The notes: generated by a model from the sequence alone, not told the origin. A DNA stretch of 64,000 nucleotides from Thermoanaerobaculia bacterium (GCA_036395755.1 DASWCZ010000094.1:13884-77883); one strand, 5' to 3'. Counted from the first letter of the stretch, positions 5,503 through 24,284 are shown. A program made the numbers and translations.

Positions 5503-5603
5503 TGTCATTCCGAGGGCCGCAGGCCCGAGGAATCTCTTCCTCGGAAAGGGAGGGATCCCTCGCGGAGCCTGTCCCGAGCGAAGGCGAGGGACTCGGGAGG
5601 ACA
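5503..5603. repeat. copy A of a dispersed GC-rich REP/MITE-like intergenic element
   Basis: TGTCATTCCGAGGG...CCCGAGGAATC...GAGGGATCCCTCGCGGAGCCTGTCCCGAGCGAAGGCGAGGGACTCGGGAGGACA. It is nearly identical in architecture to 20021-20099 and, inverted, to 24241-24284. It fills the DUF503-rbfA intergenic gap. Confidence 0.7.
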
Positions 5604-5614
5604 TGGAGAGAGAC

Positions 5615-5902
5615 CTACACATGAATGAACTCATTCCTGTAATTCAGCAGCTCGCCGTCGAGATTCTGTTCCACGAAACTCAAGATCTTCTGCAGGAGGG
5701 CGTCGAGCGGCTTCTCATCCGGGCCGACCGCGGCGACCGCCAGCTCGGCTCTTTCCAGGAGATCCTGCCCGCCGACCTCCGATGCGGAGACCTCGAACTG
5801 GTTTCGGAGCCGACTCTTCAAGCTCTGGACGATCATCCGCTTTTCCTTCAGCCCGCGGCAGCCGGGCAGGTGAAGGTCGAAGACGGCGTAAGCGAGAACC
5901 AT
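5615..5902 (-). CDS. DUF503 family protein (YlxP-like)
   Basis: 95 aa small protein. Its position between infB and rbfA matches the conserved nusA-infB-ylxP-rbfA arrangement. Confidence 0.7.
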   Translation of the reverse strand: MVLAYAVFDLHLPGCRGLKEKRMIVQSLKSRLRNQFEVSASEVGGQDLLERAELAVAAVGPDEKPLDALLQKILSFVEQNLDGELLNYRNEFIHV

Positions 5903-5944
5903 GGTTCAGCGAAGCGGAGCGGGACGATTACGAGCCCGTCTTTC

Positions 5945-8773
5945 TCAGGCTTCCATCACTCCGGCGACCTTGTCGACCTGGTATGCCTCGATCACGTCGC
6001 CCACCTTGACGTCCTGGTAACGGTCGAGAGCGATGCCGCACTCGAAGCCCTGCCGGACCTCCGAGACGTCGTCCTTGAAGCGCCGCAGAGAAGCGACCTT
6101 CCCCTCGTAGATCACGCGGTTGTCCCGCAGCAGCCGGACCTGGGAAGAGCGTCCGATCGAACCCTCGGTGACGTAGCAGCCCGCCGCGATGCCGAACTTC
6201 GGGACCTTGAACGTGTTCCGGACCTCGGCGCGACCCCGGGCGACCTCTTTCAACGTGGGTTCGAGCAGTCCTTCCATCGCCTTCCGGATCTCGTCGGTCA
6301 CGTTGTAGATGATCGTGTGGAGGCGCAGCTCGACGCCGCTCTTGTCCGCCTCCGCCTCGGCCTTCTTCTCCGGCCGTACGTTGAATCCGACGATGATCGC
6401 TCCGGAAGCGGACGCGAGCAGGACGTCATTGATGTTGATCGCGCCGACGCCGACGTGGAGGAGCGAGACCTTCACCTTCTCGTTGGACAGATTCTTCAGG
6501 GCCTGCGACAGGACCTCGGCCGAGCCGGCGACGTCGGCCTTGACGATCAGAGGCAGCTCCTTGATGCGTCCTTCCTGGATCTTGTTGAAGAGCTGGTCGA
6601 GCGAGAGCTTCTGGCTCGCGGCCATCGCCTTCTCGCGTTCCCGAAGCTGGCGGAAAGAGGCGACCGAGCGCGCTTTGGCCTCGTCCGGAACGACCTGGAA
6701 CGTGTCGCCGGCCTGCGGAAGGTCCTCGAAGCCGGTCACCTCGACCGGCGTCGCGGGGCCCGCGTCCGTCAGGCGGTCGCCACGGTCGTCGGTCATCGAG
6801 CGGACGCGGCCGAACACCGATCCGGCGAAGAAGACGTCTCCGACGCGCAAGGTCCCGGACTGGACGAGCACCGTCGCCACGTTGCCCCGCCCCGCTTCGA
6901 CCCTCGCCTCGAGCACCACGCCCCGGGCCTCCTCGGCGACGGAAGCGGTCAACTCCTGCAGGTCCGCGACGATCAGGATCAGCTCGAGCAGCTGGTCGAT
7001 CCCCTGCTTTTTGAGCGCCGAGATTTCCGCCGAGGGAACCTCGCCCCCCCACGACTCGAGGAGGACTCCGTGGTCCGCAAGCTCTTTACGGACCCGATCG
7101 GCGTTGGCGTTCGCCTTGTCGATCTTGTTGATTGCGACCACGATCGGAACCTTCGCGGCGCGGGCGTGGTCGATCGCTTCGACGGTCTGCGGCATCACTC
7201 CGTCGTCCGCCGCGACGACGAGCACGACGATGTCCGTGGCCCGGGCTCCGCGCGCGCGCATCGAGGTGAACGCCTCATGACCGGGAGTATCGAGGAAGAC
7301 GATCGGCCGGCCATGGACTTCGACGCGGTAGGCCCCGATGTGCTGGGTGATGCCTCCCGCCTCTCCTTCGGCGACCTTGGTCTGGCGGATCGCGTCTAAG
7401 AGTGATGTTTTCCCGTGATCGACGTGGCCCATCACGGTTACGACCGGCGCGCGGGGCGACCGGGCGACCGTCGTCACCGGAGCAATTTCCGCGCTTTCCG
7501 GCGCGGTTCGCGCGAGCTCGAGCTCCTCTTCGAACGAGACGACCGCGGCTTCGACGCCGACCTCCTTGGCGATCTGGATGGCGGTCGACGCATCAAGGGT
7601 CTGGTTTACAGTCGCGAGGATTCCCCGCTGCATGAGCAGTCGCTGAATGTCTTTCGCGAGGACGCCGAGCTTTTCGGAGAGCTCCTTGACCGTGACGCCC
7701 TCCGACAGGAAGATCGGGCCGGTCGGCATCGGCTTCTTGAACTCGAGCAGCTTGCCCGAATCGTGCGCGCGCGTCGACTTGGCCGCGCGACGCAGCGCGG
7801 ACTTGGAGACCGGTTTCGCCTCGGCGACGGTCTCGACCTCTTCGGCCCCCTCCGTCTTCTCGATGAGCGGAAGGGTGATGTCGGAGTAGGTGTCTTCCTC
7901 GTACGCGCCGACGAACTCCCGCAGATCGACTTCGTCCGCGACGGTGATCTTCGGCTTCGCCCCGCGCTTCGCGGCGGGCTTCTTGGTGTCCTTCTCGTCT
8001 TCCTTCTTGCGTTTCGTTCCGGCGCGCTCGGCGACGAGCGGCGGGGCCGCGGGCCGAGCGGGGCCCATGCCCGGTCTCGCGCCCGGTCCGGGACGCCCGG
8101 CGAGTCCGGTCGGGCGCAGCGGTGCGCCGGCCGGCCGCATCCCCGGGCCGCCGGGAGTCGGGCGATAGACCGAAGGAGCCGGCCGCCCCGGGCTTCCCGA
8201 AGCGGGCCCCATCGGTCTCGACGGACCCGTCGGACGCATGGCGGGAGAACCCGGCCCGGCGCCGGCGCGGGCCATTGCCGGCGGGCCGCTCGGGCCGAGA
8301 GGTCTTCCCGCCGCAGGCCGCGGGGGAGGCAGCACGATCTTGCGGGGAAGAGCCGGCTTGGCGGGCGGCTCGGGTTCCGGCTCGGAAGGCACGACCGCGG
8401 TGCGGGCCGGTTCCGCCGGCTTCGCGCGGGCCTCCGGCGTCGTCGGCGGCGCAGGCGCGGCGGCGGGACCCGAAGCGGGACGGCGGACGACGGGCTCTGC
8501 CTCCGGCTCCGGACGAGCCGGGGCGGTCTTCTCCACGATCTTGATCCGGGAGAGCGCGCTCTTCTGTGGCCGGAAGGCCTTCGATTCGCTGTCCCGGACG
8601 ATCAGCTGTTTGGGGGCGTGGGTCTTGCCCTGGAGGATGGCCAAGACCGTCGACTCGTCGAGCGCCGCCTGCGGCGATTTGACGTCCACCCCGATCGACT
8701 GGAGCAGGAAGAGAACTTCCTTGCTCCCGATCCCCATCTGCGCGGCGAGCTCTTCGACCCGAATCTTTCCCAT
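5945..8773 (-). CDS. infB: translation initiation factor IF-2
   Basis: 942 aa with a Pro/Ala/Gly-rich N-terminal linker and a GTPase domain (VVTVMGHVDHGKTSLLD, DTPGHEAF, NKIDK). The C-terminal domains are conserved IF-2. Confidence 0.97.
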   Translation of the reverse strand: MGKIRVEELAAQMGIGSKEVLFLLQSIGVDVKSPQAALDESTVLAILQGKTHAPKQLIVRDSESKAFRPQKSALSRIKIVEKTAPARPEPEAEPVVRRPASGPAAAPAPPTTPEARAKPAEPARTAVVPSEPEPEPPAKPALPRKIVLPPPRPAAGRPLGPSGPPAMARAGAGPGSPAMRPTGPSRPMGPASGSPGRPAPSVYRPTPGGPGMRPAGAPLRPTGLAGRPGPGARPGMGPARPAAPPLVAERAGTKRKKEDEKDTKKPAAKRGAKPKITVADEVDLREFVGAYEEDTYSDITLPLIEKTEGAEEVETVAEAKPVSKSALRRAAKSTRAHDSGKLLEFKKPMPTGPIFLSEGVTVKELSEKLGVLAKDIQRLLMQRGILATVNQTLDASTAIQIAKEVGVEAAVVSFEEELELARTAPESAEIAPVTTVARSPRAPVVTVMGHVDHGKTSLLDAIRQTKVAEGEAGGITQHIGAYRVEVHGRPIVFLDTPGHEAFTSMRARGARATDIVVLVVAADDGVMPQTVEAIDHARAAKVPIVVAINKIDKANANADRVRKELADHGVLLESWGGEVPSAEISALKKQGIDQLLELILIVADLQELTASVAEEARGVVLEARVEAGRGNVATVLVQSGTLRVGDVFFAGSVFGRVRSMTDDRGDRLTDAGPATPVEVTGFEDLPQAGDTFQVVPDEAKARSVASFRQLREREKAMAASQKLSLDQLFNKIQEGRIKELPLIVKADVAGSAEVLSQALKNLSNEKVKVSLLHVGVGAININDVLLASASGAIIVGFNVRPEKKAEAEADKSGVELRLHTIIYNVTDEIRKAMEGLLEPTLKEVARGRAEVRNTFKVPKFGIAAGCYVTEGSIGRSSQVRLLRDNRVIYEGKVASLRRFKDDVSEVRQGFECGIALDRYQDVKVGDVIEAYQVDKVAGVMEA

Positions 8774-8782
8774 CGAGCTGGA

Positions 8783-10264
8783 CTACTCCTGAACGATCGT
8801 CTCTTCGGCCGGCGTCGAGGGCTCTTCCTCCTGAGCGCCGGGAACTTCTTCGACTTCTTCCGATTCTTCTTCCGATTCTTCTTCCGATTCCTCGGAGCGG
8901 GGCGAACGAATCTCCTGTTCCGCTGCGCGAGCCGCTTCAAGGAGCCTCTCGGCGGTCGCCGCGCCGATCCCGGGGATTTGGGAGAGTTCCTCCGCGCTCT
9001 TGTCGAGGAGTTCGGCGAGCGATCCGACCCCGGCTTCCGCGAGCTTCTCCGCGGTCTTCCCGCCGATTCCGGGGATCTCGGACACGGGGGTCTGCTTCAA
9101 ACGAGACGCCTCGAGCATTCGCGTCAGAGCTTCGGCGACCTCGCCCTTGACCTCGGTCTCCCCCTTGATCTCGATCTTCAGACCGATCAAAGCCGAGGCG
9201 AGCCGCACGTTCTGACCCTTCTTGCCGATCGCGAGCGAGAGCTGGTCGTCTTCGACGACGCAGTCGAGGCTCATTGTTCCGTCTTCATGGTGGATGGGCG
9301 AGACCCGGGTGATCTTGGCCGGAGCGAGAGCGTTCTGGGCGAAGGTGATCAGGTCGTCGGAGTAAAGGATGACGTCGATCTTCTCGCCGTGGAGCTCCCG
9401 CATGATCGACTGGACCCGGCTTCCGCGCATGCCCACGCAGGCTCCGACCGGATCGACGTCGCGCTCGCGCGAGCGCACCGCGACCTTCGCTCGTTCGCCC
9501 GGCTGGCGGACCGCCCCCTTGATGACGACCGTGCCGTCGTAGATTTCGGGCACTTCCATCTCGAAGAACCGGATCAGGAGCCTCGGGTCGGTCCGAGAAA
9601 GGACGAGCTGCGGACCCTTCGGGTTCCGGTGCACGTCGTAGAGGATCGATCGGATCCGCTCCCCCTGGCCGTAGCGCTCGGCGCGCGATTGCTGATCGCG
9701 CGGGATGATCCCCTCCGTCTTGCCGAGATCGACGATCATGTCGCCGCGCTCGAACCGTTTGACCGTTCCGCTCATGAGCTCGCCGATCTTCGGGAAGTAC
9801 TCGTTGTAGATGTTGTCGCGTTCCGCCTCCCGGACCTTCTGGTAGAGGACCTGCTTCGCGGTCTGGGCGGCAATTCGTCCGAGCCCCATCGTCTCCCGAT
9901 AGACCCGGACTTCGTCGCCGAGAACGACGTCGTCGACCTCGGTCGCGGGCTCGCCTTCGGCGCCTGGCCGCAGAACGCGGACCTCTCCCCGCGTCCCCTG
10001 CTTTGCGACCAACTCGCGGGCTTCCTCCAGAAGGACCTCCGGCGGCGGATCCTCCGATTCGGTGTCGAGCTCCGCGACGACCGTGCGCGGCGAGTACACC
10101 GTCATTGCCCCGGTCTGGCGGTCGATCAGCGTCACCATCGCCTTGTCGTGGTAGAACTTTCTCGCCGCCGAGGACATGGCTTCCTCGAGCGCGCCGAACA
10201 TCTTTTCGGTGTCGATGTCTTTCTCCCGCGAGACCTGTCGGATCACCGACGGATCGATGTTCAT
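8783..10264 (-). CDS. nusA: transcription termination/antitermination factor NusA
   Basis: 493 aa with S1 and KH domains and two C-terminal HhH repeats (IPGIGGKTAEKL..., IPGIGAATAERL). It lies immediately upstream of infB and ends in an acidic SEESEEESEEESEE tail. Confidence 0.95.
   Translation of the reverse strand: MNIDPSVIRQVSREKDIDTEKMFGALEEAMSSAARKFYHDKAMVTLIDRQTGAMTVYSPRTVVAELDTESEDPPPEVLLEEARELVAKQGTRGEVRVLRPGAEGEPATEVDDVVLGDEVRVYRETMGLGRIAAQTAKQVLYQKVREAERDNIYNEYFPKIGELMSGTVKRFERGDMIVDLGKTEGIIPRDQQSRAERYGQGERIRSILYDVHRNPKGPQLVLSRTDPRLLIRFFEMEVPEIYDGTVVIKGAVRQPGERAKVAVRSRERDVDPVGACVGMRGSRVQSIMRELHGEKIDVILYSDDLITFAQNALAPAKITRVSPIHHEDGTMSLDCVVEDDQLSLAIGKKGQNVRLASALIGLKIEIKGETEVKGEVAEALTRMLEASRLKQTPVSEIPGIGGKTAEKLAEAGVGSLAELLDKSAEELSQIPGIGAATAERLLEAARAAEQEIRSPRSEESEEESEEESEEVEEVPGAQEEEPSTPAEETIVQE
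8855..8890. repeat. three perfect tandem copies of the 12-nt unit TTCTTCCGATTC inside the nusA 3' coding region
   Basis: The exact 12-mer occupies 8855-8866, 8867-8878 and 8879-8890. On the coding strand it encodes the SEEESEEESEEE acidic tail of NusA. Confidence 0.9.
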
Positions 10265-10286
10265 CGGACCGTGCTACTCCTCACCA

Positions 10287-10805
10287 TCAGCCCCGGCGCT
10301 CCGGCCACTCGAATTCCAATCGCGCCAGCCGAATATCGCCGAAACGGACATTATAGGTTTTGCGGTTCTCCCCATCAACGACACGGAGCAGGTCTCCGTC
10401 GACGCTCTCGAGCGTTCCGCGCAGATTTCGACTGCCCGAGCCGGGATTGCTCGACCCGTTGGAGGACAGGGCGAGCACGGGCGCGTCGGTCTTCACGCGA
10501 ACGCGCCGTCCGACGAATCTCCTGGCGTCGTCGAGCGAGTAGAGCTTCCGGTCGAGGCCGGCAGAAGAAACTTCGAGCACGTACCCGTGCGGGATCTCAT
10601 CGGACGCGTCTAAGAGAGCCGAAGCCTCTCTCGAGACTGCCTCGCAATCTTGGACGGAGACGGAGCTCCCGTCTTCCCGTTCGAGCACAAGGCGGACGAC
10701 CGCCGCCCGTCCGGTTCCGGACGGCTCGACGGCGAGCAGACGACAACCTTTCTCCCGGGCGATCGCCCGGATTTCCTCGGTCGTCTCCGGTTTCAAGAGC
10801 GGCAT
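10287..10805 (-). CDS. rimP: ribosome maturation factor RimP
   Basis: Product MPLLKPETTEEIRAIAREKGCRLLAVE... is RimP/YhbC-like and the gene sits upstream of nusA. The 223-aa ORF from 10958 has a non-homologous N-terminal extension, so the ATG at 10805 is preferred. Confidence 0.8.
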   Translation of the reverse strand: MPLLKPETTEEIRAIAREKGCRLLAVEPSGTGRAAVVRLVLEREDGSSVSVQDCEAVSREASALLDASDEIPHGYVLEVSSAGLDRKLYSLDDARRFVGRRVRVKTDAPVLALSSNGSSNPGSGSRNLRGTLESVDGDLLRVVDGENRKTYNVRFGDIRLARLEFEWPERRG

Positions 10806-10822
10806 TCCTGACCTTTGAAGAA

Positions 10823-10845
10823 CAAAAAAGCGGGCCTGCGCCCGC
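10823..10845 (-). terminator. intrinsic-terminator-like hairpin with U-tract in the rimP-nusA-infB leader (candidate attenuator)
   Basis: The minus strand reads GGCGGGC-GCAG-GCCCGC followed by UUUUUUGUUCUU, about 18 nt upstream of the rimP ATG. Confidence 0.55.
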
Positions 10846-10860
10846 CACAGTTTCGTCGAG

Positions 10861-10888
10861 AGCCGCCTCTGTTTATCAAATGAGGCGG
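10861..10888. other. 8-bp stem-loop (GCCGCCTC / GAGGCGGC) with an AT-rich 12-nt loop in the divergent rimP/tonB intergenic region
   Basis: GCCGCCTC-TGTTTATCAAAT-GAGGCGGC is a perfect inverted repeat. No U-tract follows on either strand. Confidence 0.4.
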
Positions 10889-11010
10889 CGGGCCGCAACC
10901 GAGCGACCGGATCCCGGGTCGGGAGGAGTCGGCGGACCGGCCGAAAACGAGAATCCACCGGCTGCGTCCCGTGTTAGGGGAGGAGGGCGTATTTCCCCAA
11001 GCGATACAAC

Positions 11011-11997
11011 GTGTTCGAGATCATCGAAAAAGGGCAGAAGCCATTCCCGCTCGAGCGAGCGGTCCTGATCTCGATTGCCGCCCACTTCGTCCTGCTCGCG
11101 CTCTTCCTCGCCGGGCCGGGTCCCGCGGCCCGGGGGGACCGGAAGGGCGGTTTCCTCGCGGACCTTCTGGCTCCCGAGCCCAGGGAGCCGTCCATTCCGG
11201 TCGTCTTCCGCTCCGCGCCCGGTCCCGCTCGCGAGAACCCGCGCCGGTCGGACCTCTCCGACGCCAATCGCCGCGCGGGAGGCGGAGACCGATCCCGACC
11301 GAAGGCGGGCACGCCGTTCGTCCCGAACATGCCCGGCGTCGAAGGCCTCGCGGCGGGCAAGCGGGGAAGCGCGCCCGGTCCGGCGGTGGCGCAATCTCGC
11401 GGGGTCGCGGCGCCGCGCCAGGGAGAGCCGGGAGCCTCGGGGGAGGAGAGCCGCCGACCGACCGTCTTCGGCCCGGCCGGCGAGACCGAGGGGAAGTCGC
11501 CGCTCGCGTCGGGCGGGGCGCCGGCGCGGGAGGGGGAACGGCTCGCCCGGCTCGATCAGGCGATTCGCGACGCGGCGCGGGATATGGCGGGAGGCGGGTC
11601 CCAGGGCGGGGCGGGCTTCCCGAACGCCGACGGAGGCTTCGTCGATTCGGGTCCGCTGTCCTTCGACACGACCTGGTACGACTGGGGCCCTTACGCGGAG
11701 GAGATGGTTCGCCGCATCAAGCTCCACTGGGACATCCCCGAGCTTGCCCGTCTCGGCTGGAAGGGAAAGCTGACGATCCGCTTCTACATCCTGGCCGACG
11801 GCCGGGTCGCGGACGCGACCATCATCCGGCGATCCGGGATACCGCCCTTCGATTTCGCGGCCCTTCAGGCGATCATGAAGTCTTCGCCTTTTCGCCCGCT
11901 CCCCGCGGACCTGAACGAGTCGCGCGAAGGCGTCACCGTAACCTTTTTCTACAACCTGCGTCCCGACAAAGAGGGCCCGTCCGAGCCCACGCGATGA
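11011..11997 (+). CDS. energy transducer TonB-family protein
   Basis: N-terminal TM helix AVLISIAAHFVLLALFL, a Pro/Gly/Ala-rich periplasmic spacer and a C-terminal TonB_C-like domain (KGKLTIRFYILADGRVADATIIRRSGIPPFDFAAL). The GTG start is uncertain. Confidence 0.7.
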   Translation: MFEIIEKGQKPFPLERAVLISIAAHFVLLALFLAGPGPAARGDRKGGFLADLLAPEPREPSIPVVFRSAPGPARENPRRSDLSDANRRAGGGDRSRPKAGTPFVPNMPGVEGLAAGKRGSAPGPAVAQSRGVAAPRQGEPGASGEESRRPTVFGPAGETEGKSPLASGGAPAREGERLARLDQAIRDAARDMAGGGSQGGAGFPNADGGFVDSGPLSFDTTWYDWGPYAEEMVRRIKLHWDIPELARLGWKGKLTIRFYILADGRVADATIIRRSGIPPFDFAALQAIMKSSPFRPLPADLNESREGVTVTFFYNLRPDKEGPSEPTR

Positions 11998-12437
11998 ACG
12001 ACAAAGAAAAGATTCGGACGGCCTTGGAGACCGCGCGAACCGTTGCGATCGTCGGCTGCTCCCCCAACCCGGAGCGGCCCTCGAACGCGATCGGCCGCTA
12101 CCTGATGGACCATGGGTATCAGATCGTCCCGGTCAACCCGGGGCACCCGAGAATCCTGGGAGAGACCTGCTACCGGTCGCTCTCCGAGATCCCGCCGGAG
12201 GTCCGTCTCGACATCGTCGACGTCTTTCGACGGTCGGACCAGGTCGCTCCCGTCGCGGACCAGGCCATCGCCCGGGGCGTTGGCTTCTTCTTCATGCAGC
12301 AGGGGGTCCTGGATCCGGAATCGGCGCGCCGGCTCGAGGAGGCCGGTATCCCGGTCGCGATGGATCGATGCATACTGGTGGAGCATGCGAGCCGGGGTAT
12401 CCCCCGTAGGAATTTCGAAGCGAGTCGAGAGCGTTGA
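11994..12437 (+). CDS. CoA-binding domain protein (YccU/YneT-like)
   Basis: ARTVAIVGCSPNPERPSNAIGRYLMDHGYQIVPVNP matches the CoA_binding_2 family. Its ATG overlaps the tonB-family stop (ATGA). Confidence 0.7.
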   Translation: MNDKEKIRTALETARTVAIVGCSPNPERPSNAIGRYLMDHGYQIVPVNPGHPRILGETCYRSLSEIPPEVRLDIVDVFRRSDQVAPVADQAIARGVGFFFMQQGVLDPESARRLEEAGIPVAMDRCILVEHASRGIPRRNFEASRER

Positions 12438-12483
12438 ATCCCTGCCCGGGGTTGTCGGAGCCGGTGCGCGGGAGCCCCGGGCC

Positions 12484-12537
12484 TTGGACGTTGGACGTTG
12501 GACATTGCCGTTGAACCTTGAATCGAAACCTTGAGCC
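12484..12537. repeat. heptad-periodic TTGnnnn direct repeats upstream of htrA
   Basis: TTGGACG TTGGACG TTGGACA TTGCCG TTGAACC TTGAATC GAAACC TTGAGCC runs with a 7-nt period in an intergenic region. Confidence 0.8.
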
Positions 12538-12590
12538 AGTGAAGAGCCACAGTCCCGCTCGGAAGCGGGCGGAGGAGTAGAAGAAAAACC

Positions 12591-15583: not shown

Positions 15584-15585
15584 CC

Positions 15586-15642
15586 TGTCATCCCGAGCGC
15601 GGCGAGGGATCCCTTCCTCGCACGCTCCCGAGGATTCTTCGG
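15586..15642. repeat. copy C (short variant) of the GC-rich REP/MITE-like element
   Basis: TGTCATCCCGAGCGCGGCGAGGGATCCC TTCCTCGCACGCTCCCGAGGATTCTTCGG shares the terminal GTCATCCCGAGCG and CGAGGGATC blocks and the CCCGAGGA(A)T..TTC(C)TCGG block with copies A and B. Confidence 0.6.
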
Positions 15643-15675
15643 CCCTTCCGGCCCCAGAATGACAGGAGAAAAAAT

Positions 15676-16242: not shown

Positions 16243-16253
16243 GATCGTCTCGG

Positions 16254-16832
16254 ATGGATCTCCACCGCGTTTGCGTCTACTGCGGGGCGAGTGCGACTCG
16301 GGATCCCGCGGTGGAGGCGGAGGTTCGCAAGTTCGGCCGTGAGATCGCGGCCCGCGGAATCACTCTCGTGTACGGCGGCTCCTCGCTCGGTTTGATGGGG
16401 AGTCTCGCCGACGAGGTCATCTCGGCCGGAGGCAAAGTCATCGGTGTCATTCCCGAAGCGCTCGTCGGCCGGGAGGCGGCGCACAAGCGCGTCACGGAGT
16501 TGAAGGTCGTTCATACGATGCACGACCGGGATCAGACGATGTTCGACCTGGGCGATGCCTTCGTCGCGTTCCCCGGCGGCTTCGGGACGCTCGACCAGGT
16601 TCTCGAAATGATCACGTGGAAACAGCTGGGCATCCATGGCAAGCCCGTGGTGATCGCGAACATCGGCGGCTACTTCGACCCGCTGCTCCAGCAGTTCGAA
16701 AATGCCATCCGTTCCGGCTACGCGCGCCCCCAGGACCGGATCGTCTATGCGGTCGCGGCGAATACGTCCGCAATCCTGACGTTGCTCGAGGGAGCGCCGG
16801 TCCTGTTCCGCAAGCCGGGAGACTGGGCCTAG
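16254..16832 (+). CDS. LOG-family (TIGR00730) cytokinin riboside 5'-monophosphate phosphoribohydrolase-like protein
   Basis: GGGxGLMG-type motif (VYGGSSLGLMGSLAD) and PGGFGTLDQVLEMITWKQLG, both diagnostic of the LOG/lysine-decarboxylase-like family. Confidence 0.85.
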   Translation: MDLHRVCVYCGASATRDPAVEAEVRKFGREIAARGITLVYGGSSLGLMGSLADEVISAGGKVIGVIPEALVGREAAHKRVTELKVVHTMHDRDQTMFDLGDAFVAFPGGFGTLDQVLEMITWKQLGIHGKPVVIANIGGYFDPLLQQFENAIRSGYARPQDRIVYAVAANTSAILTLLEGAPVLFRKPGDWA

Positions 16833-17795
16833 GACGAGGTCGGCGCCGACTTTTCGGGTCCTGTTTTCCGGTTTCCGGCTCCCTGCTCCCTCAATTTCAA
16901 TTCCTCCAGGAGCGTGCGGTTGATTCCGACGAGGTCGGCTAATAGTGCAATCAGGAACGTCTGCGCCCCGACGACGATCAGAACTCCGGCGAGAATGAGC
17001 GACTGGACGTGGCCGCCCGGATTCTGCCCGGCGAAGACGTACCAGAGGTAGCGGACACCGAGGATCGCGCCCGCGAGAAGAAAGATCGCCGCGGCCGCCG
17101 AGAAGATCTTCAACGGCTTGTAGAGCGCGGTGATCCGCAGGACGTTCGCGCCCTGGACCAGAACGTATTTCGTAACCGAGGAATAGAGTCGGGAGCGGCG
17201 CGCAGGCGGCCGGGCCGCGACCGGAACCGACGAGACCCGCAGGTCCTTCGATCCCGCCTGGATCAGGGTTTCGAGCGTGTAGGTCATCTTCGAAAAGACG
17301 TTGACCCGGCGCGCCGCCTCGCGCGATAGCGCGCGGAAACCGGAGGCGGCGTCGGGGATCTCGAGGCCCGACGCCTGGCGGACTGCCCAGCTCCCGACCC
17401 TCTGGAGGATTCGTTTTCCCGGGGAGAAGTGCGCGAGCGAGCCGGGGCCCCGATCCCCCACGACGAGATCCGCTCGGCCGGCCAGAATCGGTGTGACGAG
17501 AGCCGGTATGTCCTCCGCGTCATACTGGAGGTCCGCGTCGAAGTTGACGACGACGTCCGCGCCCATGGCGAGCGCCTCCTCGAGGCCGGCCGAAAAGGCA
17601 GCCGCCAGGCCGCGATGCGCGGGCAGCCGCACCACGCGGTCGGCACCGCCCGCGCGCGCGACGTCGGAGGTCCGATCCATCGAGCCGTCGTCGATGACCA
17701 GAACTGCGACCTCGGAAAATCCGGAAACGGAACGCCCGATCGAGGCGAGCGCCTTCCCGAGGATCGCCTCCTCGTTGAACGCGGGAATCTGGATG
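16829..17795 (-). CDS. polyprenyl-phosphate glycosyltransferase, GT2 (DPM1/GtrB/ArnC-like) with C-terminal TM helices
   Basis: VIQIPAFNEE...DDGSMDRT...NFDADLQYDAEDI DxD region plus two C-terminal TM helices typical of polyprenyl-P sugar synthases. A GTG start at 17795 is preferred. Confidence 0.8.
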
Positions 17796-17802
17796 ACGAG
17801 CT

Positions 17803-20025
17803 TCACGGAAGAGACGCCGCGACGGGACGGAAAGCCCGGATCACGATCGCGGCAAACGCGATCAAACCTACACCGGAAAGGAGGAGCTCCCATCGCGGAA
17901 TCTGGAACTTCCCTTCGACGCGATGCCGGCCGGCGGGGAGCTCGAGACCGAGAAAGATCCCGTCGGCCGCGAAATCCGAGGCTCTCCTGCCGTCGAGAAA
18001 GAGCCGCCAGTACGGTGGAAACCTCTTCTGCGAGGAGACGAGGAGCGAAGGAAGAGGGGTCTCCGTCTCGAGCTCGAATCGCTCGGCAGCGAGTGACACG
18101 ATCCGGATCGCCCCGTCCGAGCCCCGCCGCGGCTCGCCCGAGGCGAGGGCCTGCGCGAAGTCGGGCGCCACAAAGACCGCGCTCGCGAGAGTTTCCCGAT
18201 CGGCCCGCCGCACCTCTTCGATTCCCCCGGGCAAGGCGCGGGAGACGATCCAGAACCTCGGGAAGGCGCTCGGTCTCGCGAAGAGCGTCATGTCCCTTCC
18301 GTTCGCGATCCGCGGAAAGCGGGCCGCGTCCGGCAGAGGCCGCGCGGCGAGGCCCGGAGGATCCATCGCCGCGGCGTCGCGCTCGCTCGCGGCCGCTCCC
18401 GTCGGCGCCGGCGAACCGGGCGGCGCGGCCAGAACGGTGACGTTCAAGAGATCGAGGACCGGCGAACCGGGATCGAGCGACCGCGGGTCGAACAGGAGGT
18501 AGGTCCCGTAACGGCCAAAGGAGAACGGGTCTGCGGCCGAAAGGAGCCGGCGGTAGGCGGCCTCGTGAAGGAGGTGCCCGCGCACGTCCTCGAGATGGAA
18601 GACTTCCGAGACGTTGGGAAGGAGCGTCCAGCCCGCCGCCGCGAATCGGCCGGGCGAAGCCCGCTCCATCCCTTCGAGCCGCTCGATCCCCGGCGTCTTC
18701 GCGAATACCGCCTGGGAAGGCCGGGCGACCGAGTAGAAGTCGAGCGCCAGGAAGGCGAGCGGTATCGCGATCCCGAACGGGGCGACCGTGAGAGCGATGG
18801 TGCGCGCCCCGCTACCTTCCGCGAGCCGCTCGAGCGCCTCCGCCCCGCACGCGGCGAGGACCGCAACCGCGAGGACGATCAGGATCTTGGATCGCGAGAA
18901 GAGCGCGTTGTCGAGAAGCGGAAGGGAGCCGACCGCTTTGAGGAGCCGGCCTCCGCCGTAGAGCGGGAGAACGACCGCGGCGGCGAGGGTTGCCGCCCAA
19001 AGCGCAAGGGCGCGTCGGCGTCTCGAGAAGATCCCGACGGCCGCGAGCGCGGCGGCGACGAGCCCGACGCCCGAAGCCGTTTCGACGTAGTTGTCGCCCG
19101 GGATCCAACCGACGCCGTGGTAGTCCCCGTGCCGGGTCGTCCCCTGGTAGTCGGGAAGGAAGTAGAGGCGAATGTGCCGGAGGGGCAGGGGAAAAGCGCT
19201 CCCCATCCCCTTGCGCAGCGGCTGAAAGCCGGATGCTTCGACGAAGCGGGCCGAGGCGAGGATCGATGGGGTCAGGATTGCGACCGAGATCGCGAGCGAG
19301 AGGGCGAGCTTTGCGAAGGCCCTTCCCGCGTTCTGCCGTTCTCGCGCCGCGCGAAACAGGAAGTACAGCCCGGCCGCGAACGCTCCGTAGAGGATCCAGT
19401 GGGGGAACCCGCCGACCAGGCAGAGGAGGAACGACGCAGCCGCGAAAGAGAGGGCCCGCGCCGGGCGCTTACCATCGAACGCGCGGTCGACGGCCACCAG
19501 CAGAAGCGGATACGTCACGGAGACGGACGTCTGCATCCAGAGGCCCCAGACCGTCTGTCCCGTCGAGAACGCCCAGGTCGCGGCCCCCGCGGCGGCGGCC
19601 AGGTCCGAGAAGCGTCGGCTCCGCAGAAAGAACCAGGCGGCGAGGTACGCGAAGTTGAACTTCAGAAAAAGAATGCCGGTCTCGATCCACGCCTCGGGAA
19701 GGAGGAGCGAGGGAATCGCGACGAAGGGGGAGAGGAAGCCCTGCGCGAGGTGAAAAGGGCCGATCGCGCCGGCGGACACCCACGGGTTCCAGAAGAAGCC
19801 ACGCGGAAAGTCGCGGTAGCGGACGAGGGTGGTCTCGCCGGAAGCCGCAGGATCCGCGAGGAGCGGGTTCTCGGCCTGCAGGACGCCCTCTTCCGTTTGA
19901 CGCCAGGGATGGTGCGCGCGCACGAACTCGTGCGAGGAAAGGACGCGGCCGCGCGCGAGGAGCGGCGCGAAGAGGACGAGATCGAAAGCGAGCAGCGTGG
20001 CGAAGCCGACGCGGCGGCCGGTCAT
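17803..20025 (-). CDS. large polytopic membrane protein, GT-C-like/YfhO-like putative glycosyltransferase
   Basis: 740 aa with more than 10 predicted TM helices in the N-terminal two-thirds and a soluble C-terminal domain, immediately upstream of the polyprenyl-P GT2 gene. The annotated ATG lies inside repeat copy B, so the start is uncertain. Confidence 0.55.
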   Translation of the reverse strand: MTGRRVGFATLLAFDLVLFAPLLARGRVLSSHEFVRAHHPWRQTEEGVLQAENPLLADPAASGETTLVRYRDFPRGFFWNPWVSAGAIGPFHLAQGFLSPFVAIPSLLLPEAWIETGILFLKFNFAYLAAWFFLRSRRFSDLAAAAGAATWAFSTGQTVWGLWMQTSVSVTYPLLLVAVDRAFDGKRPARALSFAAASFLLCLVGGFPHWILYGAFAAGLYFLFRAARERQNAGRAFAKLALSLAISVAILTPSILASARFVEASGFQPLRKGMGSAFPLPLRHIRLYFLPDYQGTTRHGDYHGVGWIPGDNYVETASGVGLVAAALAAVGIFSRRRRALALWAATLAAAVVLPLYGGGRLLKAVGSLPLLDNALFSRSKILIVLAVAVLAACGAEALERLAEGSGARTIALTVAPFGIAIPLAFLALDFYSVARPSQAVFAKTPGIERLEGMERASPGRFAAAGWTLLPNVSEVFHLEDVRGHLLHEAAYRRLLSAADPFSFGRYGTYLLFDPRSLDPGSPVLDLLNVTVLAAPPGSPAPTGAAASERDAAAMDPPGLAARPLPDAARFPRIANGRDMTLFARPSAFPRFWIVSRALPGGIEEVRRADRETLASAVFVAPDFAQALASGEPRRGSDGAIRIVSLAAERFELETETPLPSLLVSSQKRFPPYWRLFLDGRRASDFAADGIFLGLELPAGRHRVEGKFQIPRWELLLSGVGLIAFAAIVIRAFRPVAASLP

Positions 20026-20151
20026 TCCGAGGCGCTGAGCGAGCCCGAGATCCCTCGCGGAGCCTGTCCTGAGCGCATGCGAAGGGCTCGGGATGACAAA
20101 AGGGGACTTCGCTCAGGGTGACAAAAGGTGACTTCGCTCAGGATGACCCGG
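20021..20151. repeat. copy B of the GC-rich REP/MITE-like element plus two tandem 25-nt repeats
   Basis: GTCATTCCGAGGCGCTGAGCGAGCCCGAGATCCCTCGCGGAGCCTGTCCTGAGCGCATGCGAAGGGCTCGGGATGACA is followed by GATGACAAAAGGGGACTTCGCTCAGG and GTGACAAAAGGTGACTTCGCTCAGG. It fills the whole intergenic gap. Confidence 0.7.
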
Positions 20152-20154
20152 AGA

Positions 20155-21078
20155 TTACCGCTTCCTCGCCACGATCACGCGGAAGTACGAGTCTACCCAT
20201 CCCCGCTCGAGGAGATGCTCCTCGAAGGCGATCAAGCGAGATAACGCTCCGGTCGAGTCCTGCCGGAGCCGTTCCATGTCCAGGCAGGGAAAGACGAACC
20301 ACAGGATGTTGCCGCCGTACGGCCGCTCCTCGACGATCTCGAAGAGGCGCGCGGCGGCCGGACGGATCGCGCTCGAGCGAATCGACTCCGAGGGATCGTC
20401 GAGCGGCAGCGGGATGGCAAGCCGAGGCCGGTTCTTCAGCTCGCTCGGAAGAGCGTCGAAGGCGCTTCGCGCGAACCCCCAGTGCTCCTCGGTCCACTCG
20501 GCGCGCGAGGGTCCCATGTACTCGTCGATGTAGACGAGACCTCCCGGAGAGAGCGCCTGTCGGACTTCGGAGAGCACGCGCTCGATCTGTCGAACGTGGT
20601 GCAGCGAGCCGTGAAAGAAGACGATGTCGTAGAGCCCCCGCGGCAGATCGAGAGCGTTCACGTCCTCGATCCGGTAATCGAGCCGCCCGGAAAGGTGCGC
20701 CTCCTCCGCGGCGAACCGCGCCTCTCCGATCGACTCCTCGGAAAAGTCGATTCCCTCCATCGCCTCGCAGATCCCCTTGGCGAGAACATCGCGCTCGAGG
20801 AGACCGGAGCCGCAGCCGATCGAAAGCCCGCGGGAGAAGGGCTTTTTCGCGTACGCCTCCGCGAACCACTCCATCGGCCAGCGGTTCGGGTCTCCGGTGA
20901 CCCTCCGGTTGATCGCCCGGCGGACCAGGGGTTGGGCGCCCCAATAGTGATCTTCCGCGTCGCGAGCGGTCTCGGCGTTCCAGAAACGGCGGGCAGCCGC
21001 GGTTTCGGCGCGCTCCTCTCGAAGAGAAGTCCAGCGCCGCACGAGCGAGGAGAAAGACGCCCGAAGCGCGGATGACAT
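20155..21078 (-). CDS. class I SAM-dependent methyltransferase
   Basis: SAM-binding motif [14 protein letters not shown] and acidic loop [12 protein letters not shown]. The ATG at 21078 (MSSALRAS...) is preferred over the longer ORF. Confidence 0.75.
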
Positions 21079-21135
21079 TGGAAGTGTCGGCTCAATATAG
21101 CAGCCCGATTCGGCTCGCGGAAAACGCGGCACGCA

Positions 21136-21164
21136 TTGCGCCCGGCGGGCGGGTCTGCTAGATT
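21136..21164 (+). promoter_or_regulatory. sigma70-like promoter candidate (TTGCGC-17 nt-TAGATT) upstream of the tRNA-Val genes, overlapping a perfect GATTGCGCAATC palindrome
   Basis: -35 TTGCGC at 21136-21141 and -10 TAGATT at 21159-21164 with a 17-nt spacer. The 12-bp palindrome at 21160-21171 is a possible operator. Confidence 0.35.
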
Positions 21165-21289
21165 GCGCAATCCTCCGAAGACCCATCGGAGCGGATCTTT
21201 TTCAATCAGGGACGAAGGCCGGGATGAAAACGCCCCCGCGGGCTTCCGGCCGGTAGCCCCCCGGACGGCGGTTCGCTGCCGGGACGAAC

Positions 21290-21364
<75 letters not shown>

Positions 21365-21378
21365 ATTGTTCGAGGCGG

Positions 21379-21454
21379 AGGCGCTTAGCTCAGCTGGGAG
21401 AGCGCTACCTTCACACGGTAGAGGTCAACGGTTCGATCCCGTTAGCGCCTACCA
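21379..21454 (+). tRNA. tRNA-Val (anticodon CAC)
   Basis: Acceptor AGGCGCT/AGCGCCT, anticodon loop TTCACAC, T-loop TTCGATC and encoded CCA. Confidence 0.9.
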
Positions 21455-21467
21455 GAGAAGACATGAC

Positions 21468-21497
21468 GACGCGGGGTGACCCGCGTTTTCGATTTTT
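21468..21497 (+). terminator. Rho-independent terminator after the tRNA-Val pair, 40 nt upstream of thrS
   Basis: GACGCGGG-GTGA-CCCGCGT(T) stem-loop followed by TTTCGATTTTTTGG. Confidence 0.7.
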
Positions 21498-21537
21498 TGG
21501 CGACGGAAACGACGGAAACTTTCGGAATCGGGAGAAC

Positions 21538-23490
21538 ATGGAAGCGCTGGCGGAGAAGGTGACGATCCGGCTACCCGACGGGACGACCCTCGAGGTCCCG
21601 AAGGGCACGACGGTCCGCGAGGTCGCGGAGCGGATCGGCCCGCGTCTGGCCAAAGACGCGGTCGCGGGGAAGGTCGATGGACGCATCGTCGATCTCGTCA
21701 CGCCTCTCGCCTCCGACGCGTCGCTCGAGATCGTGACGTGGAAATCGCCTGACGCAGTGCCGATCTATCGTCACTCCACCGCACACCTGACGGCGCAGGC
21801 GGTCAAGCGGCTCTTTCCCGAAGTCCAGATCGGAATCGGGCCGCCGATCGAGAACGGCTACTACTATGACTTCCTCCCCGCGCGGCCTTTTACGCCCGAG
21901 GACCTCGAGAAGATCGAGGCCGAGATGCGGAAGATCATCGCCGAGGACTGGAAGATCGAGCGACAGGAGATGCCGGTCTCCGAAGCGATCGAAATCTTCG
22001 AAGGCCAGAAGGATCCGCTGAAGGTCCAGATCGCCCGCGAGCTTCCCGACGACCGCGTCTCGTGCTACCGGCAGGGGGAGTTCATCGACCTCTGCCGCGG
22101 TCCGCACGTTGCCTCGACCGGACGGCTCGGCGTCTTCAAGCTGACCCACACGGCCGGCGCCTACTGGAAAGGGGACGAGAAGAACCCGATGCTCCAGCGC
22201 ATCTACGGGGCGTCGTTCCTGACCCAGAAGGAGCTCGATGGATACTTGAAAGGCCTCGAGGAGGCGAGAGCGCGCGACCATCGCAGGCTCGGCCGTGAGC
22301 TCGACCTCTTCACGTTCCACCCGCTCGCGCCGGCGTCCCCTTTCTTTCTGCCGAAGGGAGCCGCGCTCTACAACGGGCTGCTCGCGTACCTGCGCGACGA
22401 GTACCGGCGCCGGGGGTACGAGGAGGTCGTCACGCCCCAGATTTTCGACTCCGAGCTCTTCCGGATCTCCGGTCACTACGACAACTACCGGGACAACATG
22501 TACTTCACGGAGATCGAGGAGCGGGAGTTCGGGGTCAAGCCGATGAACTGCCCCGGGCACCACCTGATATTCAAGGAGCGGCTCTGGTCGTACCGCGAGC
22601 TGCCGGTGCGTTTCGCCGATTTCGGACGGCTCCACCGTTACGAGCGATCGGGCGTGACGGCCGGCCTGACGCGCGTACGCACGTTCTCCCAGGACGACTC
22701 CCACATCTACTGCCCGATCGACCAGATCGAGTCGGAGATCGCGGCATTCGTCGACTTCTTGGACGACGTCTACCGGACTTTCGAGTTCCATGACGTCGAT
22801 ATCTCGCTCGGAACCCGGCCGGACCAGCGAATTGGTTCGGACGAGAACTGGGACAAGGCGGAGGCCGTCCTGGCCACGTCGCTCGAAACGCTCGGACGTC
22901 CTTACGTCGTGAGCGCGAAGGACGGCAACTTCTACGGTCCCAAGATCGACTTCCGGGTGAAAGATGCCATCGGGCGCCCATGGCAGCTGGGTACGATGCA
23001 GGTCGACTTTGCCCAACCCGAGCTTTTCGATCTCACCTACATCGGCGAAGACGGGAAACCCCACCGTCCCGTCGTGCTCCACCGGGCGATCCTGGGGTCC
23101 GTCGAGCGCTTTCTCGGAATCTTTATCGAGCACACGGCGGGCAACTTCCCGTTCTGGATCGCTCCGGTCCAGGCGGTGGTGCTGCCGGTATCCGATCGTT
23201 TCGCGGCCGCCGCCCGCCCCGTTGCGGAGCGCCTCGCCGCGGCGGGCCTGCGAGTCGAAACGGACGAGCGCAACGAGAAGCTCGGCGCTCGCATCCGCAA
23301 GGCGGAGCTTCAGAAAGTGCCCGCGATGCTGGTCGTCGGCGAGAAGGAAGTGACGGCGGGCACGGTTTCGGTCCGGCTGCGGCATGGAGGAGACGCGGGA
23401 TCGATGACCGTCGACGCGTTCCTGGACGCCGCCGGGAAGGCGGTCTCGCAGAAGAGTCGTGAGCTCACGACGGAGGTGAAAGATCGATAA
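21538..23490 (+). CDS. thrS: threonyl-tRNA synthetase
   Basis: 650 aa with a TGS domain N-terminus ([24 protein letters not shown]), class II core motifs and an anticodon-binding C-terminus. The ATG is preceded by GGGAGAAC. Confidence 0.95.
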
Positions 23491-24019
23491 GAAAACGATT
23501 CGAATCAACGACCAGATCCGGTGGAAGGAGGTCCGCCTGATCGGCGCTGAGGGCGAGCCCCTCGGAGTCGTGGCGATGGCCGAAGCGCTCGAAAAGGCGA
23601 AGGAAGCGAGCCTCGACTTGGTCGAGATCGCGCCGACGGCAAACCCGCCCGTCTGCCGGATCATGAACTTCGGAAAGTTCATCTATCAGCAGAAGAAGAA
23701 ACAGCAGGACTCGAAAAAGAAGCAGAAGACGACCCAGGTGAAAGAAGTGAAATTTCGACCGAACATCGACGACCACGATTACGACTTCAAGATCAAGAAC
23801 ATCCTGAAGTTCCTCGCCCACGGCGACAAGGTCAAGGCGACCGTCCAGTTCCGCGGCCGCGAGATGGCGCGCCGGGAGAACGGGCAGCGGGTCCTCGATC
23901 GGCTGTTGATCGATCTCGCGGGGAAGGCGGTGGCGGAGTCGCGTTCGGAGATGCTTGGAAACCGCCTCTACCAGATCCTCGCGCCGGTCAAGGTGCACGA
24001 GAAGGCGGCGAGAGCGTAG
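23483..24019 (+). CDS. infC: translation initiation factor IF-3 with a non-AUG start (AUC at 23483 or AUU at 23498)
   Basis: The conserved N-terminus [17 protein letters not shown]...[23 protein letters not shown] lies upstream of the first ATG (23570). An in-frame TGA at 23477 bounds the ORF. ATC at 23483 sits 6 nt after GGAGG. The gene overlaps the thrS 3' end. Confidence 0.8.
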
Positions 24020-24032
24020 GAGGAGTGATTCG

Positions 24033-24230
24033 ATGCCCAAGATCAAGACCCACCGTGGCGCCGCGAAGCGTTTCAAGCGAACCGCGTCGGGAAAGTTCAA
24101 GAGGGCGAAGGCGTACAAGAGCCACATCCTGACGAAGAAAGCACCGGGCCGGAAACGCGGACTCGCCCAGTCGACGTCCGTCTCCCACTCGGACCAAAAG
24201 CGCGTCCGGGAGATGCTGCCCTACGCATAA
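24033..24230 (+). CDS. rpmI: 50S ribosomal protein L35
   Basis: [36 protein letters not shown]... is the L35 signature. An AGGAGG SD precedes the ATG. Confidence 0.93.
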
Positions 24231-24240
24231 ATACCGTTCT

Positions 24241-24284
24241 GCCATCCCGAGTCCCTCGCATTCGCTCGGGACAGGCTCCGCGAG
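24241..24284. repeat. copy D (inverted orientation) of the GC-rich REP/MITE-like element
   Basis: CCATCCCGAGTCCCTCGCATTCGCTCGGGACAGGCTCCGCGAGG is the near-exact reverse complement of the A-copy core, with 2 mismatches over about 40 nt. It lies between rpmI and rplT. Confidence 0.7.

Follow-up and report, generated by a model that had tools for sequence, protein, structure and literature searches.

TGTC-tagged palindromic repeat units with a nested 50-nt form in operon spacers of a Thermoanaerobaculia bacterium and in bacteria of many phyla

Results

Here, we describe short palindromic repeats in a 64-kb stretch of DNA from a Thermoanaerobaculia bacterium (GCA_036395755.1, DASWCZ010000094.1:13884-77883; all 64,000 nucleotides are referred to as the window). 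Four intergenic spacers, DUF503/rbfA, regulator/pyrE, membrane protein/methyltransferase and rpmI/rplT, hold elements that are made up of two modules, a simple unit of ~30 nt and a long unit of ~50 nt. The elements are likely mosaics of repetitive extragenic palindromic (REP)-type units, of a TGTC-tagged family that is related to the CGTC-tagged REP superfamily and would multiply by means of a trans-acting factor. Compensatory changes keep the basal stem of the units, the family is dispersed in both orientations beside unrelated genes in many phyla, units were gained, lost or exchanged at orthologous sites between relatives of ~90% identity, and the elements are tolerated inside operons. This bears out a preliminary description made from the sequence alone, which had pointed to a dispersed, hairpin-forming REP-like family inserted in both orientations inside operons; the four related elements that it listed are all present at or near the positions it gave. 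Its limits for the first copy, 5503-5603, stand, and the other copies extend over 15585-15665 (not 15586-15642), 20020-20148 and 24240-24306. The four copies consist of the following parts.

5503..5536, plus strand: first copy, simple unit; tag TGTC 5503-5506, stem ATTCC 5507-5511 / GGAAT 5529-5533, loop GAGGGCCGCAGGCCCGA, tail CTC
5554..5603, plus strand: first copy, long unit GATCCCTCGCGGAGCCTGTCCCGAGCGAAGGCGAGGGACTCGGGAGGACA; matched by the other-phyla long-unit model, E 1.8e-13
15585..15613, plus strand: second copy, left simple unit C-TGTC-ATCCC-GAGCGCGGCGA-GGGAT-CCC; simple-unit model E 1.4e-6, also in the regular-expression census
15631..15665, minus strand: second copy, right inverted simple unit, minus strand CTGTC-ATTCT-GGGGCCGGAAGGGCCGA-AGAAT-CC
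20020..20048, plus strand: third copy, degenerate simple unit GGTC-ATTCC-GAGGCGCTGAGCGAGCCCGA, read from the sequence
20049..20098, plus strand: third copy, long unit GATCCCTCGCGGAGCCTGTCCTGAGCGCATGCGAAGGGCTCGGGATGACA; long-unit model E 5.5e-18
20099..20148, minus strand: third copy, two truncated heads, minus strand GGTCATCCTGAGCGAAGTCACCTTT and TGTCACCCTGAGCGAAGTCCCCTTT
24240..24287, minus strand: fourth copy, long unit CCTCGCGGAGCCTGTCCCGAGCGAATGCGAGGGACTCGGGATGGCA with degenerate tag (TGCC); long-unit model E 1.8e-12
24288..24306, minus strand: fourth copy, degenerate inverted head, minus strand TGTCGTTCTGAGCTCTGCG, read from the sequence

Three occurrences of the 17-nt core GGAGCCTGTCCYGAGCG were counted in the window (5564 and 20059 on the plus strand, 24263 on the minus strand) against 0.13 expected; none of 100 shuffles gave as many as three. 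A repeat finder aligned 5554-5603 with 20049-20098 at 88% identity over 50 nt, and 24240-24285 with 5558-5603 at 93% complementarity over 46 nt; the fourth copy is thus the reverse complement of the core of the first, as had been noted, with three mismatches over 46 nt and not two. A profile hidden Markov model (HMM) of the long unit, built from copies in other genomes and other phyla only, recovered exactly the three long units of the window (E 5.5e-18, 1.8e-13 and 1.8e-12) and gave no further significant match in the 64 kb. The simple-unit HMM matched 15585-15611, 5502-5536 (E 0.034; this unit is also in the regular-expression census) and three heads within 20086-20147. TGTC tags stand at 5503 and 15586 and, on the minus strand, at 20098 and 20123, with degenerate forms at 20020 (GGTC) and 24240 (TGCC).

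The copies differ in layout. In the first, a 17-nt spacer separates the simple unit from the long unit, and the second is an inverted simple-unit dimer, CTGTCAT...ATGACAG. The two tandem 25-nt units that had been reported behind the long unit of the third copy are present, and we refine them as truncated heads of the repeat family itself (reverse complement TGTCAYCCTGAGCGAAG), with simple-unit HMM matches at 20107-20124 and 20132-20147 (E 8e-4 and 3e-3). The inverted head of the fourth copy is intact (TCGGAATGACAG) in the relatives L001, L004 and L006 described below.

A 126-nt spacer bounded by the stop of DUF503 (5615) and the start of rbfA (5488), two minus-strand genes, accommodates the first copy; the genes belong to a row DUF503-rbfA-truB-rpsO that follows large open reading frames (ORFs) read as nusA and infB; IF-2 domains were recorded for the gene upstream of this row in syntenic contigs. 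The left unit of the second copy starts 2 nt past the TAA stop of the regulator (15581-15583), and its right unit is followed 3' by GGAG and then by an in-frame TTG at 15676, which we take as the start of the pyrE-like gene. The truncated heads of the third copy stop 6 nt short of the methyltransferase stop codon (20155-20157), and the fourth copy is placed in the 98-nt rpmI-rplT spacer. Pfam confirmed the gene names given previously (RbfA, DUF503, sigma-54 response regulator, methyltransferase, L35 and L20), for pyrE only to the level of a generic phosphoribosyltransferase (PRTase) domain (E 4e-6); the 740-aa membrane-protein gene gave a weak YfhO-like match.

On the tag strand, the simple unit reads TGTC-ATYCC-GAGCGnAGCGA-GGRAT-CTG, i.e., an unpaired tag, a 5-bp stem that begins with AT, a GCGnAGC hairpin enclosed by two tandem G.A mismatches, and a tail of 3 nt (CTG/CTC). 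Five Watson-Crick pairs are followed by G.A, A.G, G-C, C-G and a GnA loop, which gives nine stem positions and a 3-nt loop with the G.A pairs counted, or 5 bp and 11 nt on Watson-Crick pairs only. The long unit follows the pattern GATYCCTCGCGGAGCCTGTCCYGAGCG..CGARGG.CTCGGRATGACA over ~50 nt and can be written (C)AGATYCC-TCGCG-GAGCC-TGTC-CY-GA-GC-GnA-G(n)C-GA-RG-GGCTC-GGRAT-GACA. It resembles a simple unit in whose loop a second, inverted unit with a TGTC tag of its own is nested.

Simple units were selected in the regular-expression census by tag and loop anchors only, and 80 of them had fully paired arms as compared to 24 expected with shuffled partners. Their arms covary (ATCCC/GGGAT in 41, ATTCC/GGAAT in 14, ATCCT/AGGAT in 9, ATTCT/AGAAT in 5 and ACCCC/GGGGT in 4), and the four arm types that begin with AT make up 69/80. 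Among these 80 units the tag was TGTC in 73 and CGTC in 4, the loop GAGCGnAGCGA was present in 62, and the tail was CTG in 46, CTC in 9, CTA in 7 and CCC in 7, with CCA not among the commonest. In the long-unit alignment (A1, 44 sequences), the nested-hairpin model pairs 91.9% of cells, and compensatory changes occur at pairs 8-48 (CG 20, UA 20), 7-49 (UA 34, CG 5) and 26-39 (UA 35, CG 7). The observed covariation score was reached by none of 500 shuffles and every slid control collapsed; the middle helix is uninformative here because the search pattern fixed its 5' half. Wobble-type departures occur on both strands, as four G.U at pair 6-50 and six C.A, equivalent to G.U on the other strand, at pair 10-46. 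Whole composites fold better than shuffles, with z of -2.3 to -3.5 on the better strand.

The family reaches far beyond the window. When 185,579 species-representative genomes were scanned with the 20-mer CCTCGCGGAGCCTGTCCYGA, exact matches came up in at least 115 genome stretches, and all such stretch counts are lower bounds taken from the matches listed. Listed carriers include Acidobacteriota (among them Thermoanaerobaculia), Chloroflexota (among them Dehalococcoidia), Gemmatimonadales, Hydrogenedentota, Nitrospirota, Nitrospinota, Planctomycetota, Verrucomicrobiota, WOR-3, a metagenome-assembled genome (MAG) of Peribacterales, alpha-, gamma-, 'delta-' and 'lambda'-proteobacteria, and one isolate, Microlunatus flavus. 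The 20-mer was found on several contigs of 0.2-4.5 Mb, and mis-binning therefore does not account for the spread across phyla. Carriers include the 4.46-Mb Acidobacteriota contig CAWFHK010000001.1 and the 2.4-Mb contigs CAXVYR010000004.1 and CAVXWG010000014.1. Uncultivated bacteria from many phyla have a 45-50-nt core in common that is almost identical in sequence, and one complete 45-nt unit is identical between a Verrucomicrobiia and an Acidobacteriota contig. Each genome nevertheless has a variant of its own, such as GACCCC...GGGGTGAC in a Lambdaproteobacteria MAG and GGGGATTCC...CCCGAGCGAATGCGAGGGG in a Hydrogenedentota MAG, which is a signature of multiplication within the genome. The carrier DNA more than 500 bp away from seed matches (686 kb) held 4 further long and 21 further simple units or, scaled to 5 Mb, about 30 long and 150 simple ones.

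Thermoanaerobaculia and other Acidobacteriota additionally carry arrays, in which a simple unit is followed by n repeats of 50-53 nt that start with AGATCCCTCGCGGAGCCTGTCCTGAGCGG, and which close with AGATCCCTCGCTTCGCTCGGGATGACAG. The repeats start with the 5' half of the long unit, and the brackets are a simple unit on one side and the 3' half of a simple unit on the other. The arrays were located as follows.

L054, 45-167: tandem array of 50-53-nt repeats
L078, 1301-1372: tandem array of 50-53-nt repeats
L055, 1285-1844: tandem array of 50-53-nt repeats, Thermoanaerobaculia MAG DASRPJ01
Several Acidobacteriota loci: tandem arrays of 50-53-nt repeats

Each new array repeat seems to be placed after the motif AGATCCCTCGC, as though the element brings its own insertion target. 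A CRISPR-like reading of the arrays was rejected, as the "spacers" are diverged copies of one another. The simple unit is present in 34 viral contigs. The long unit had no match in 2.9 million viral contigs and none in the PLSDB plasmids, and a phage or plasmid vehicle for the spread across phyla was set aside on this ground.

Syntenic metagenome contigs, retrieved via the L20 and DUF503 proteins, allowed comparison of orthologous sites. L002, L003 and L005 belong to the window population (99.6-99.98% identity over nearly the full aligned length), and soil populations carry the contig (JGI 3300012350 and 3300012354). Three other contigs, L001, L004 and L006, come from relatives with about 90% identity and do not count as independent lineages. 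The regulator/pyrE spacer shows presence/absence polymorphism: it measures 92-93 nt in the window and L001 and 7 nt in L006, where window positions 15588-15673 correspond to a single G, and the filled site has no target-site duplication. From the regulator stop to the pyrE-like start there are 7 nt without the repeat (L006 1324) and 92 nt with it, and a GGAG Shine-Dalgarno motif lies directly 3' of the element end, while the empty L006 site has none; gain or loss of the repeat has thus changed the operon spacing and the ribosome-binding site here. The membrane-protein/methyltransferase spacer varies in length from 96 to 195 nt and holds a long unit in the window and L006 and a simple unit, GATCTCTCGC-TTCG-CTCGGGATGACA, at exactly the same place in L001 and L004, which supports the reading of the long unit as nested units.

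Long units evolve more slowly at orthologous positions than four-fold degenerate sites. The latter differ by 18-19% in the neighbouring translation genes, as compared to 1/43, 2/43 and 3/50 positions in orthologous long units (P 0.0016, 0.0087 and 0.011 against the four-fold rate). In the remainder of the rpmI-rplT spacer, 16/53 positions differ and there are gaps in addition; this part is at least as diverged as the four-fold sites, and the divergence of the simple-unit dimer (15/91) cannot be told apart from the four-fold rate. In three further contigs from relatives of 84-85% identity, retrieved by a metagenome scan with a 30-mer of the window variant, the rpmI-rplT unit is kept in place and orientation. 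Because the search required an exact 30-mer match, only 12-13 flanking bases are unbiased for conservation; these are identical too. The rpmI-rplT long unit is old at its site and constrained, and its lineage-specific variant is not present in high copy number.

Genes that could mobilize the units were sought with the E. coli RayT protein (tblastn and phmmer) and with a regular expression for the HUH...Y motif of REP-associated tyrosine transposases (RAYT). Clustering of 2808 ORFs from the 115 loci yielded no recurrent partner gene, only ORFs that overlap the repeat, ABC ATPases and histidine kinases. No autonomous element was found between outward-facing ends 0.4-3.5 kb apart, which enclose only ordinary housekeeping or phage genes and never a transposase. 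The searches for RAYT gave one gene only: a phage-like viral contig (IMGVR_UViG_3300027905_000668, L139) carries an unrelated RAYT-like Y1 HUH gene (NHVH ... WQ ... YIERNP; 1169-1817, minus strand) beside a terminase-like ORF. The gene is bounded on both sides by palindromes of ~90 nt that start with GTGGCGCAGGCTTCCAGCCTG, and looks like a REPtron carried by a virus or prophage.

Translation of the 740-aa membrane-protein gene most likely starts at a codon that the repeat provides. Its ATG (20025-20023, minus strand; CAT at 20023-20025 on the plus strand) lies within the GGAATGAC end of the element, and the preliminary description had suspected a misplaced start on this account. The conserved protein sequence GRRxGxATLLxFDLVLFAPLLARGR begins two codons past this ATG in the window, L004 and L006, and none of the three has an alternative start between the element ATG and the conserved region or anywhere before the conserved part, so that the start is probably annotated correctly. 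L001, without the GGAATGAC end, uses an upstream ATG instead and has a different N-terminus.

A role of the copies as transcription terminators or attenuators, as once suggested, was not borne out. No T-tract follows any copy, two copies lie inside operons, and the 23 terminator-like sites in the interval 5000-24900 do not include a repeat copy. Searches of Rfam with the window, the first copy and 16 carrier loci, at gathering thresholds and at E up to 10, gave no family for the repeats, and nothing above E about 0.7 on the first copy. All four window copies are antisense to their genes, and the window mRNA bears the poorer-folding strand in every copy, clearly so in the first, third and fourth. 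By heuristic gene calls, the orientation outside the window was the same in 9 cases, opposite in 9, convergent in 11 and divergent in 5, and the classifiable sites comprise 20 co-directional, 11 convergent and 5 divergent spacers. An orientation bias relative to transcription was considered and rejected, the four of four in the window being treated as chance; the even split elsewhere implies that there is no general strand-specific role at the RNA level.

An unrelated hairpin repeat, GGGTGCAGGTCCGCGGGACCTGTCCC, lies at 4163-4188 (minus strand) in the truB-rpsO spacer, with a second copy at 39550-39575 (minus strand) that has three mismatches, including one compensatory stem change from T-A to C-G. 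The truB-rpsO copy is tandemly duplicated (about 50 extra nt, around 4210-4300) in the near-identical strains L123, L125 and L126, which is a copy-number polymorphism within one population. Adjacent tRNA-Val genes at 21290-21364 and 21379-21454 (plus strand, anticodons GAC and CAC), upstream of thrS, were the sole Rfam and ARAGORN matches in the window.

Discussion

The closest described kind of repeat is the CGTC-tagged REP superfamily, to which we compared the units by the written description of its four families, CGTC-1 to CGTC-4. According to this description (Di Nocera, De Gregorio & Rocco 2013, BMC Genomics 14:522; PMC3733652), the superfamily has a CGTC tag with variants TGTC and CCTC and includes Neisseria dRS3 and Rickettsia RPE-4/RPE-6. 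Its members have stems of 8-9 bp whose first two pairs are A-T, loops of 4-5 nt and an unpaired 3-nt tail with the consensus CCA, and mostly form inverted dimers. They were found in Proteobacteria, Chlorobi, Bacteroidetes, Spirochaetes and Thermotogae, in intergenic regions that mostly separate co-directional or convergent genes, and no dedicated transposase is reported for them (PMC3733652). Measured against this account, the present family shares the unpaired tetranucleotide tag (as the TGTC variant), the A-T-first stem, a 3-nt tail, inverted dimers, residence in intergenic co-directional and convergent spacers, occurrence in several phyla and the lack of a flanking transposase in the loci searched. 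It differs in its 5-bp Watson-Crick stem with tandem G.A pairs and GCGnAGC mini-hairpin, its CTG/CTC tail, the nested long unit of ~50 nt, which is beyond the size range given there, the 50-53-nt arrays, and its hosts, which are mainly Acidobacteriota, Chloroflexota, Gemmatimonadota and other uncultivated lineages.

The units have several traits in common with the RAYT-mobilized REP, BIME and REPIN elements of E. coli and Pseudomonas: they are short hairpins with a conserved tetranucleotide foot on the 5' side, pair up as inverted doublets that can fold into a larger hairpin, fall into genome-specific subfamilies, reside in the spacers of operons and lack target-site duplications. However, the foot is TGTC and not the GT[AG]G of REPINs, neither the window nor the surroundings of any unit yielded a RAYT, and the core is near-identical across phyla, unlike in the lineage-specific REPIN families. 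Class 3 TnpA-Y1 repeats are known from Acidobacteria, Planctomycetes and Legionella, with about 600 copies in Solibacter usitatus (Quentin et al. 2018, BMC Genomics 19:475). They resemble the present units in the 5' foot, a stem with tandem G.A mismatches and a G..A loop closure (CAGA-GCCGC-GA-CC-GTnA-GG-GA-GCG), both families occur in Acidobacteria, and for class 3 the copy number is high. Yet class 3 repeats flank their own transposase gene, which the present units do not, and identity with class 3 was rejected, as the sequence is different and absent from the window and the 166 loci searched. Bacterial miniature inverted-repeat transposable elements (MITEs) such as Correia/NEMIS, Nezha and Chunjie are likewise ~70-130 nt long, have inverted ends, insert into operons and can give neighbours start codons or Shine-Dalgarno-like sequence, but the present elements differ from them by the absence of target-site duplications and of a parent insertion sequence (IS), and by their modular build from independent hairpin units. 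The long-unit sequence itself was not found in the searchable literature, either by DNA strings or by repeat-encoded peptides.

That the units are not mobile at all, but are DNA sites kept by selection, where a protein binds or recombination is targeted (landing sites of IS110/Piv or tyrosine recombinases, or sites of a nucleoid or replication protein), is an unlikely explanation, although the long unit is far more conserved than four-fold sites, both orthologously and across phyla, lacks an orientation bias relative to transcription, and has no associated transposase that we found. Selection for a conserved protein, of the host or of an element, would explain the sequence identity across phyla and the slow change of orthologous copies. 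The dRS3 repeats act as integration sites of Neisseria filamentous prophages. The superfamily description files dRS3 under CGTC-1 (PMC3733652). However, no recurrent neighbour gene or inserted element lies beside the units in the 115 loci, a binding site has no need of a covarying stem, and the genome-specific subfamilies, nested units and tandem arrays point to multiplication of the units themselves. A functional RNA, be it a leader, ribosomal-protein operator, mRNA stabilizer or processing site, or small RNA, with the rpmI-rplT long unit recruited to control L20 synthesis, we consider highly improbable. It would fit the single orientation relative to genes of all four window copies, their certain location within transcription units, and the persistence of the rpmI-rplT copy in relatives down to 84% identity within a flanking spacer that was free to change. 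Against an RNA function stand the position of the core beside unrelated genes in many phyla, in both orientations (9 vs 9 outside the window) and also between convergent genes, the lack of Rfam matches even at E up to 10 and of terminator tails, the wobble-type mismatches on both strands, and the less-well-folding strand in the window mRNA of each copy. Conserved gene-specific leaders, which the preliminary description had weighed as a counter-explanation, do not describe these copies either, since the core has unrelated genes as neighbours in many phyla and the element is missing from one orthologous site.

The least likely of the explanations is a classical MITE in the strict sense of the name used at first, i.e., a deletion derivative of an IS with a DDE transposase, moved by cut-and-paste via terminal inverted repeats (TGTCATYCCGAG...CTCGGRATGACA). 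Inverted ends of 11-12 nt do bound every composite, the length of 66-130 nt is MITE-like, and one orthologous site is empty. But the filled site has no target-site duplication, the left units differ among the four copies, which are hence mosaics of units and not copies of one element, and what would be a terminal repeat is in each case the head of a 30-nt hairpin unit that is independent and can be found single, truncated or in arrays as well. Moreover, no autonomous copy was found in the loci searched, where outward-facing ends 0.4-3.5 kb apart enclose ordinary genes only.

We regard mosaics of TGTC-tagged REP-type units that would multiply by means of a trans-acting factor as the likely explanation, and several observations weigh against it. 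A RAYT flanked by the same units was not present in the 64-kb window, in the 115 genome loci or in the 34 viral loci, although these ~1.4 Mb are stretches and not whole genomes, so that the test is a weak one; the only RAYT-like gene encountered, on viral contig L139, is flanked by its own GTGG-tagged REPs. More generally, no transposase or nuclease gene linked to the units was found in the loci examined. Many or most carriers are MAGs, and the phylum of some short contigs could be a binning error; the orientation counts depend on heuristic gene calls. The comparison of filled and empty regulator/pyrE sites is not clean, in that the boundary is unsharp and GA is replaced by the element plus GGAGAAAAA, so that a deletion in L006 is possible and the direction of change is not given. 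The metagenome scan with the window-variant 30-mer returned three contigs only, all of them orthologous rpmI-rplT spacers. Single consensus units fold no better than shuffles (z about 0, nearest-neighbour parameters), and an alternative fold with two hairpins, the thermodynamic optimum, is compatible with 93.5% of the alignment. This two-hairpin fold shows no compensatory change, however, and its first hairpin is contradicted in 23/44 sequences. Its second helix joins the inner head to the outer head, which may reflect their shared origin as inverted heads.

For TGTC-tagged units multiplying in trans, we infer a mechanism in which they would propagate as folded single-stranded DNA, inserting beside or inside one another and so giving rise to inverted dimers, nested units and 50-53-nt tandem arrays. 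Such propagation is suggested by the DNA-specific mini-hairpin motif, by the layout of 5' foot and hairpin that is common to IS200/IS605 ends and REPs, by the absence of target-site duplications, and by insertion beside or inside existing units. GCGNAGC "mini-hairpin DNA" has extraordinary stability in its DNA form, is much less stable as RNA and is bound poorly by SSB (PMC13037366). Multiplication would be carried out by a sequence-specific trans-acting factor, most likely an HUH-type single-strand nuclease or transposase encoded away from the repeats, as this would account for both the identity across phyla and the slow evolution. More tentatively, and with considerable doubt, one may propose that the long unit (CCTCGCGGAGCCTGTCCYGAGCG..CGARGG.CTCGGRATGACA) is a pan-bacterial, constrained nested hairpin read by a trans-acting machine, such as an orphan HUH or other single-strand DNA nuclease, or a replication or repair factor that reads mini-hairpins of the GCGnAGC type. 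Dependence on such a machine would explain near-identity in more than 10 phyla, slow evolution at orthologous sites and the lack of an adjoining transposase. Within operons, the elements would be co-transcribed as stem-loops without causing termination; at the RNA level they are probably near-neutral and would at most modestly affect how stable the mRNA is or how neighbouring cistrons are coupled. Among the copies, the one in the rpmI-rplT spacer is the best candidate for having taken on a host function.

As a rule, REP-type repeats are lineage-specific and tied to a RAYT; since 2013, the CGTC-tagged branch has stood out as an exception that lacks an explanation. Much of uncultivated bacterial diversity harbours a TGTC-tagged branch with a nested 50-nt unit, and the combination of a covarying stem, turnover at orthologous sites and unusual sequence constraint makes the question of its maintenance and spread testable. 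The units are translated into spurious 'hypothetical proteins', break metagenome assemblies, and can supply start codons and shift operon spacing, for which reasons annotators should mask them. If the long unit is indeed read by a trans-acting machine, it would represent a new class of host-dependent selfish or domesticated DNA and would answer how CGTC-type REPs spread.

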